A stretch of DNA of 64,000 nucleotides from assembly GCF_003334255.1 (NCBI RefSeq), contig NZ_QOWU01000005.1; one strand, 5' to 3'. Origin of the DNA: Escherichia coli (GTDB lineage Bacteria > Pseudomonadota > Gammaproteobacteria > Enterobacterales > Enterobacteriaceae). Each line of letters begins with the position of its first letter. The first letter of the stretch is position 1. Below the pieces are notes generated by a model that saw nothing but the letters and a program-made list of their open reading frames with translations, did not search any database and had not been told where the DNA came from. The position numbers and the translations under genes are program-made. This document shows, piece after piece, positions 13,048 through 13,758 of this stretch.

Positions 13048-13216
13048 TCTAGGGCAGGGAAAGATCACGTGGTGCTGCTTTTTTGTACTAAACAATTTGC
13101 ATTTTATGTTCAATAATTGAGACATTCCTTATTACCTAAAACTGTTTTTCATTGCTTATACATGAGCAAATACTCCTTACATAATTAAGGAGAACAAAAT
13201 TGAACTTAAAAAATTG

Positions 13217-13684
13217 ATGGAACATATTTCTATTATCCTCGATTATAGACAAGCTAGGAAAGTGAAACATAAATTGTTTGATATTCTACTGTTGACTATT
13301 TGCGCACTTATTTCTGGTGCAGAAGGCTGAAAAGATATAGATGGTTTTTGGGAAACGCATCTTGATTTTTTTAACAATATCGTGATTTTGAAAATGGTAT
13401 TCCTATTCACTATACCATTGCCAGAGTTGTATCCTGTATCAGTTCTACAAAATTTCATGAGTGTTTTATTAACTGGATGCGTGATTGTCATTCTTAAGAT
13501 GATAAAGACGTCATTGCAATTGATGGAAAAACGCTCCGGCATTCTTATGACAAGAGTCGTCGCAGGAGAGCGATTCATGTCATTGGTGCATTCTCAACTA
13601 TGCACAGTCTGGTCATCGGACAGATCAAGACGGATGAACAGAAACTACCTAGCGTCAGTCCTTGCGGGGAGCGGGCTTTCGTAA
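13217..13684 (+). pseudogene. Degraded H-repeat (ISAs1-family) transposase remnant
   Basis: Translation gives [35 protein letters not shown] then a TGA where GWEDIE is expected; later frames give [73 protein letters not shown] and the C-terminal [16 protein letters not shown]. About 470 bp versus about 1.1 kb for an intact element. Confidence 0.7.
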
Positions 13685-13758
13685 TCTTGCCTGTAGCGTT
13701 ATTTGTTTTCGAGAATAAATATATAATACTCCATGTGGATATTTAGTTAAAAGAGGAT

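Follow-up and report, generated by a model that had tools for sequence, protein, structure and literature searches.

A decayed, internally deleted ISEc1-like element adjoins the ops site in the O167 O-antigen leader of Escherichia coli

The promoter of O-antigen operons lies upstream of JUMPstart, and RfaH loaded at the ops site suppresses termination over long distances. In the Escherichia coli locus studied here, 711 nt separate ops from wzx, the first gene of the cluster, compared with about 140 nt in the O23 locus (L009). We asked what DNA occupies this leader, how it came to lie there, and whether it is likely to matter for the operon behind it.

The 64-kb stretch analysed (hereafter the window) includes the E. 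coli colanic-acid/O-antigen junction, and the region around the leader carries the O167 O-antigen locus, with the gene order wcaM, galF, a 1,008-bp interval, wzx, glf, glycosyltransferases, an ATP-grasp amidoligase, wzy, gnd, and ugd. Across positions 9000–25760, the window differed from strain 214-4 by 0–1 mismatch per 500 nt. In the near-identical locus of that strain (L001), RefSeq names an "O167 family" flippase and polymerase, glf, and the ATP-grasp amidoligase, so that the O167-type wzx and wzy, the glf gene, and an amino-acid amidoligase gene of an E. coli O167 cluster are all present. The glf and amidoligase genes fit the O167 unit, which contains Galf and L-alanine (PMC7685785). Upstream of wzx is a 39-bp JUMPstart containing the 12-nt ops sequence GGCGGTAGnnTG, and this was the sole ops match in the window. 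The features of the leader and its flanks are as follows.

11857–12750, + strand: galF, the conserved left flank of the O-antigen locus (open reading frame; RefSeq annotation of the near-identical locus L001)
13009–13047, + strand: JUMPstart (Rfam RF01707, 60 bits against a gathering score of 35, E = 2.6e-11)
13036–13047, + strand: ops, GGCGGTAGCGTG, the RfaH loading site, an exact match to GGCGGTAGNNTG, intact and upstream of the IS remnant
13048–13054, + strand: 7-nt spacer, tctaggg, separating ops from the left end of the IS, common to the O15 and O88 leaders (alignments)
13055–13693, + strand: ISEc1-like (H-repeat, ISAs1 family) remnant, 639 bp, in operon orientation (blastn to intact 1,291-bp elements; MAFFT alignment)
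13694–13758, + strand: spacer between the IS and wzx, the start of O167-specific DNA (O15 homology ends at 13691)
13759–15024, + strand: wzx, O167-family flippase, first cluster gene, GTG start (open reading frame; RefSeq annotation)

Other Rfam matches in the window were a histidine operon leader at 35979–36102 (−), an algC RNA at 3067–3116 (+), two naRNA4 (REP-type) sequences in the colanic acid region at 2910–2980 (−) and 7601–7671 (−), and STnc240 at 38841–38915 (+). All of these are expected for that part of the E. coli chromosome.

A first-pass annotation of this DNA had placed a decayed H-repeat (ISAs1-family) element between the JUMPstart/ops signal and the first O-antigen gene. Both its identity and its position were borne out: JUMPstart occupies 13009–13047, wzx starts at 13759, and the intervening DNA matched ISEc1 by blastn and the profiles NF033564 and PF13808 far beyond chance. 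The left end of the remnant lies 7 nt after ops. Its alignment to intact ISEc1 comprised two blocks, one of 584 nt at 90.2% identity (E = 0) and one of 58 nt at 94.8%, which correspond to positions 1–584 and 1231–1288 of the intact element. The reference intact elements were L003:1405-2695, the copies in the O15 loci L006 and L007, and a nested copy in L008. The NCBIfam profile NF033564 (ISAs1 family transposase) matched a repaired conceptual translation with E = 1.6e-42 and 145.8 bits (cut-off 70), covering profile positions 1–122 of 314 only, and Pfam PF13808 (DDE_Tnp_1_assoc) matched the same translation with E = 3.4e-28. For the DDE domain PF01609, model positions 3–57 of 200 are left (E = 0.0096), so that the catalytic domain is no longer complete. 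Judged from its sequence, the remnant belongs with ISAs1-type transposase genes by ancestry alone, and the gene is broken. At 639 bp, against 1,291 bp for an intact copy and about 1.2–1.3 kb for the ISAs1 family, the element is a deletion derivative.

The relevant known system is the ISEc1/H-repeat (H-rpt) of Rhs elements, a member of the ISAs1 family represented in K-12 by yhhI and ydcC. The remnant is about 90% identical to it over the retained 640 nt and has the same terminal inverted repeats (CAGGGAAAGAT.../...ATCTTGCCCTG); the N-terminal PF13808 domain and the final 15 codons are likewise the same. It differs in being shorter (639 against 1,291 bp) and about 10% diverged, and in having its DDE region deleted, its start lost, two stops, and a frameshift. 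In a megablast survey of 5,426 complete E. coli genomes, ISAs1/ISEc1 matches were present in 5,340, at a median of 5 places per genome, and no intact copy more than about 93% identical to the remnant was found in any of the 5,426. The remnant is 89–90% identical to intact copies, which are 96–99% identical among themselves. No other ISEc1-related DNA was detected in the window by blastn. In RefSeq, the identical locus carries the label [quoted passage not shown], and reports of H-repeat remnants in O-antigen clusters go back to the 1990s; the remnant is thus already known in kind. The relic is genuine, was identified correctly, and is an ordinary one carrying a pseudogene. As a dead IS from a familiar family, at a kind of locus known for such relics, it is of little import alone.

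The coding lesions were located by alignment to the intact elements.

13199–13201, + strand: lost transposase start codon, ATG to ATT; the translation starts with I (alignment)
13199–13374, + strand: coding piece A, original frame, about codons 1–59, with TGG changed to TGA at 13328–13330
13375–13636, + strand: coding piece B, about codons 60–148, frame shifted, with TCA changed to TAA at 13495–13497
13634–13638, + strand: junction of a 650-bp deletion that removed element positions 589–1238
13637–13684, + strand: coding piece C, original frame regained, last 15 codons and stop (translation and alignment)

A 1-bp deletion between 13374 and 13375 shifts piece B, so that the three pieces lie in two reading frames (original, −1, original). 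The junction of the 650-bp deletion falls at 13636–13638, and its exact breakpoint is ambiguous because a short ATG(A/G)A is common to both ends. About 216 of the 378 codons were lost, including nearly all of the DDE domain. With the start codon lost, two nonsense codons, a frameshift, and the 650-bp loss of the catalytic DDE region, no transposase can be made. The in-frame TGA and the conserved 15-residue C-terminal end noticed earlier were recovered at 13328–13330 and 13637–13684, respectively; the second nonsense codon, TAA, had been missed. The earlier reading that the pieces occupy at least three frames did not hold, since translation of 13198–13690 gave two: the first and third pieces are read in the frame beginning at 13199, and the second, which ends in GQIKTDEQ, in the frame beginning at 13198. 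That interval, proposed as the extent of the element, covers it only in part: the true span is 13055–13693, and the 144-bp left end had been overlooked. The internal deletions suspected in it are present, and consist of the 1-bp and the 650-bp losses.

The 144-bp left end is non-coding and carries the left inverted repeat. A search for terminal repeats had been proposed as a check, and both ends proved recognisable, agreeing at 12 of 15 positions.

13055–13069, + strand: left inverted repeat, CAGGGAAAGATCACG (12/15 positions match the reverse complement of the right end)
13680–13693, + strand: right inverted repeat, cgtaatcttgcc-tg; intact copies have one further C, which is absent in O88 copies as well
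13693–13699, + strand: GTAGCGT, repeating the 3' part of ops, whose own copy is at 13040–13046 (direct sequence reading)

The reverse complement of 13680–13693 reads CAGG-CAAGATTACG, and repeats of the kind sought, of about 14–20 bp, are present. The terminal repeats were compared by hand; an automated repeat search reported none, because the exact seeds were too short. No 10-bp target duplication was found in the canonical register (gtgtctaggg on the left, tagcgttatt on the right). If an older element began at 13050, the flanks would be gtagcgtgtc and gtagcgttat, which agree at 7 of 10 positions, all contiguous. The O88 equivalents are gtagcgtgtc and gtagcgtaga, and the arrangement is the same in the O88 loci L026 and L010. 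The GTAGCGT repeat may represent a target duplication that has decayed, rather than a second functional ops, and as such would reflect a simple insertion adjoining ops. Under a simple insertion with this proposed duplication, the empty site would read ...ggcggtagcgtgtc followed by ttgttttcgag.... Together with the IS terminus, the second GTAGCGT forms GCCTGTAGCGTT, which agrees with ops at 9 of 12 positions.

Comparison with other serogroups, also suggested as a check, revealed related ISEc1 copies at the same leader site in O15 and O88. These copies share with the O167 remnant both the place, from ops to the first gene, and the orientation; unlike the remnant, the intact ones are full length with open transposase genes. 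An end-to-end match to JUMPstart plus the first 70 nt of the IS was obtained in 91 genomes, namely the three complete O167 genomes and 88 others, sampled members of which were O15 clusters. An intact, co-oriented ISEc1 lies between JUMPstart and the O15 wzx (L006:3072-4362, L007:3072-4362), and in some O15 strains (L008:3072-5660) a second ISEc1 is nested inside the first. The left junction reads gtg-tctagggg/caggg in O15 and gtg-tctaggg/caggg in O167 (the slash marks the IS end). Homology between O15 and O167 ends at the IS right end, at 13691, and the DNA downstream is unrelated. In the O88-type leader, 84 extra bp lie between a tctagggg spacer and the IS, starting with the inverted-repeat-like taggggaaggtcatcg. 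The taggg of the spacer between ops and the IS may be what is left of an older ISAs1-like left end, present in full in O88. The O88-type ISEc1 is intact in NCTC9088 (L026:1600-2910), which we take to be the O88 type strain, and decayed in H22 (L010) and in TUM12357 and E308 (L011, L027). The leader ISEc1 of O15 occurs in roughly 90–100 complete genomes, and the O88-type leader in about 150.

In most other serogroups, leader homology stops at 13047, the end of JUMPstart. The O23 leader (L009) also has tctag at this point, and we discounted it as a chance extension because the L009 match had been picked for being the longest. A 25-nt pattern of the ops-tctRaggg junction had no matches when one genome per species was searched; a 20-nt version matched Nitrincola, Pseudohongiella, and Phenylobacterium, which were taken as chance.

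Two observations bear on whether the copies at this site share an origin. First, the O167 and O88 elements have the same abnormal right terminus, cttgcct followed by tagcgt. Second, NCTC9088 and H22 have the same flanks and the same odd terminus (gccttaag), whereas their IS bodies are 9.4% different. With junctions the same and bodies different, these loci show that the interior of the IS can be replaced by recombination with other copies, and the pattern suggests gene conversion of the interior. The first 100 nt of the remnant are 81–84% identical to the O15 and O88 copies and differ from the very first bases. These different first bases would be explained equally well by independent insertions at a preferred target site or by one ancient insertion followed by gene conversion.

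It is credible, though on balance unlikely, that ISAs1-family elements inserted repeatedly at a preferred target just downstream of ops, the O167, O15, and O88 copies being separate events. Bodies that differ by about 10% from their first bases next to an identical flank of 7–8 nt are consistent with this, as are the one additional G at the O15 junction relative to that of O167 and the O88 insertion point lying 84 bp further downstream. Target preference of ISEc1 is also seen elsewhere, in nested insertions 3 bp apart. However, a fresh copy would not be expected to carry the abnormal terminus that O167 and O88 share, with its lost C and the TAGCGT behind it; NCTC9088 and H22 show a replaced body between fixed junctions; and no leader copy has a canonical 10-bp duplication, unlike fresh insertions elsewhere. 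Fresh ISEc1 insertions with 10-bp duplications were observed at L003:1395-2705, L002:1595-2905, and L008:3265-4580, the L003 duplication (tcggttaacc) being clean. Two independent insertions of ISEc1 into ISEc1 struck sites 3 bp from each other, some 200 bp inside the element, with the duplications cagacaagcc and acaagcctgg. H-repeat transposition has been stated as not observed (PMC3032704).

We then considered how the relic relates to the O167 cluster beside it. The junction of the 650-bp deletion was found in 3 of the 5,426 complete E. coli genomes, once in each and always beside the O167 wzx. All 11 O167 loci examined (the RefSeq loci L001 and L005 and nine contigs encoding an identical Wzx) have the same 1,008-bp galF–wzx interval, with 0–7 SNPs in the remnant. 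Between the window and L005, identity was 95–96% in wcaM, galF, and the galF–JUMPstart spacer, 100% at JUMPstart, and 99–99.9% from there through the end of the cluster. This jump at JUMPstart indicates that the relic is part of the transferred O167 block and that the left crossover lay at or before JUMPstart, not within the IS. The spacer at 12751–13009 was 95% identical to L005, which puts the recombination point of the block a few tens of bases at most ahead of JUMPstart.

The distribution also bears on whether the relic could still move. With both terminal repeats recognisable and intact ISEc1-family copies common in E. coli, it might be a miniature non-autonomous element that the transposase of an intact ISEc1 can mobilise. 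We regard this as extremely improbable, given that the deletion junction occurs at a single place, always the O167 leader, in just those three genomes, that the right repeat is one base short, and that there is no clean target duplication.

The first-pass annotation had also suggested that the element probably records an earlier IS-mediated exchange of the O-antigen cluster. That it is a relic of the evolution of the cluster is plausible in light of the O15 and O88 copies; we found no evidence that the IS did the exchanging. The O167 genes could have arrived on the right end of an H-repeat, by transposition or cointegrate resolution or by a crossover in the IS, a model put forward for Salmonella group D2. 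The O167-specific low-GC DNA does start right at the IS right end, where O15 homology stops, and no target duplication exists in the canonical register. As a precedent, an H-repeat remnant lies at the D1/E junction of the Salmonella enterica D2 cluster, likewise a decayed ISAs1-family element at a boundary of DNA with different histories (PMC3715488). The Salmonella remnant is situated mid-cluster between two identifiable parental segments, whereas the O167 remnant lies in the 5' leader and adjoins no nameable parental clusters. The original work on the D2 remnant is reportedly that of Xiang, Hobbs and Reeves in 1994. IS1358, another ISAs1-family element, is associated with O-antigen cluster replacement in the rfb regions of Vibrio cholerae O1/O139; it is a different element in a different species. 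For O167, a leader already present into which the element simply inserted would fit the 7/10 agreement of the flanks (left of 13050, right of 13692), the one traceable transfer crossed over at or before JUMPstart and not in the IS, and no donor sequence was identified. We therefore consider it unlikely that the IS was the agent of exchange.

The remaining question was whether the relic affects transcription of the cluster. A possible effect on RfaH-dependent read-through into wzx had been proposed, and we found nothing to support it: the relic follows an undamaged ops, a scan of the + strand over 12700–13900 predicted no terminator-like site, and longer copies occupy the same place in O15 and O88. 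The 711-nt leader contains 141 G and 114 C; with G in excess of C, it is unlike a Rho loading site, which would be expected to be rich in C and poor in G. Full-length (1.3 kb) and nested (2.6 kb) copies at the same site in O15 and O88 imply that insertions there are apparently tolerated. These scans of the sequence revealed no sign of the remnant impairing read-through.

Fixation in every O167 locus seen, the increase of the ops-to-wzx distance from the roughly 140 nt of O23, and weak promoter-like hexamers in its left end could all be taken to mean that the relic has been co-opted as a regulatory leader, that is, as a promoter, an attenuator, or a Rho/RfaH-sensitive spacer tuning O167 expression. 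Since the cluster is transferred as one block, fixation would be expected in any case. The promoter-like hexamers numbered 7, against 4.2 ± 2.2 in shuffled sequence, and were thus not enriched, and the + strand lacks a predicted terminator, as noted above. Within O167, SNPs amounted to 7 in the 639 nt of the remnant and 37 in the 9,699 nt of the cluster genes, an approximately 2.9-fold higher density (Fisher p = 0.017) that is in keeping with what would be expected for unconstrained DNA. Co-option is accordingly judged very unlikely, and the relic is most likely a passive, neutrally decaying part of the leader. A codon-position skew among remnant-specific differences (13/4/22, p = 0.002) was considered as a sign of a separate functional lineage and was rejected, because the count also takes in substitutions from the stem of the live family, which would yield the same skew.

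Taken as a whole, the locus is, with high probability, explained by a dead, internally deleted ISEc1-like copy in the O167 leader, which would have no function of its own and would stem from an old insertion next to ops. RNA polymerase would start upstream of JUMPstart, load RfaH at the intact ops, and then transcribe the relic within the 711-nt leader before reaching wzx; the relic would add neither a function nor a quantitative effect of its own. The remnant would descend from an old ISAs1-type insertion adjoining ops that was inherited also by the O15 and O88 leaders, with the IS body at the site either decaying, as in O167 and some O88 loci, or being refreshed by recombination with live copies, as in O15 and NCTC9088. 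When the O167 cluster is transferred between E. coli lineages, the relic moves with it.

More tentatively, ISAs1-family elements might have a long-lived niche, or a preferred target, in the few bases just downstream of ops in E. coli O-antigen leaders, with O15, O88, and O167 as three surviving states; we put this forward as a possibility about which we have considerable doubt. If it were true, RfaH antitermination would make a co-oriented IS harmless at this position, and the IS would persist across cluster replacements, refreshed by gene conversion, as portable homology at the left edge of the variable region. An ops-adjacent site that is occupied in three unrelated clusters, with bodies swapped, gives a modest hint of how O-antigen loci come to be rebuilt, and the pattern suggests that RfaH-controlled leaders tolerate large co-oriented insertions. 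For practical purposes, the relic marks the left edge of the O167-specific block, and the distance from the JUMPstart primer site to wzx is longer by 0.64 kb in O167 and by 1.3–2.6 kb in O15/O88.

The remnant itself is annotated in RefSeq; what is new is the finding of related copies, some of them intact, at the corresponding position in O15 and O88. No published description of the O167, O15, or O88 leader IS was found in the literature searched, in which coverage of older subscription journals was thin. The locus L005 (NZ_CP062824.1, strain Res13-Lact-PER13-34) is labelled O169:H41, yet it carries an O167-type wzx/wzy cluster. An ST182 O167:H41 clade has been described (PMC8454413). The O169:H41 label is probably a serotype mislabel; alternatively, the strain may belong to the O167:H41 lineage.
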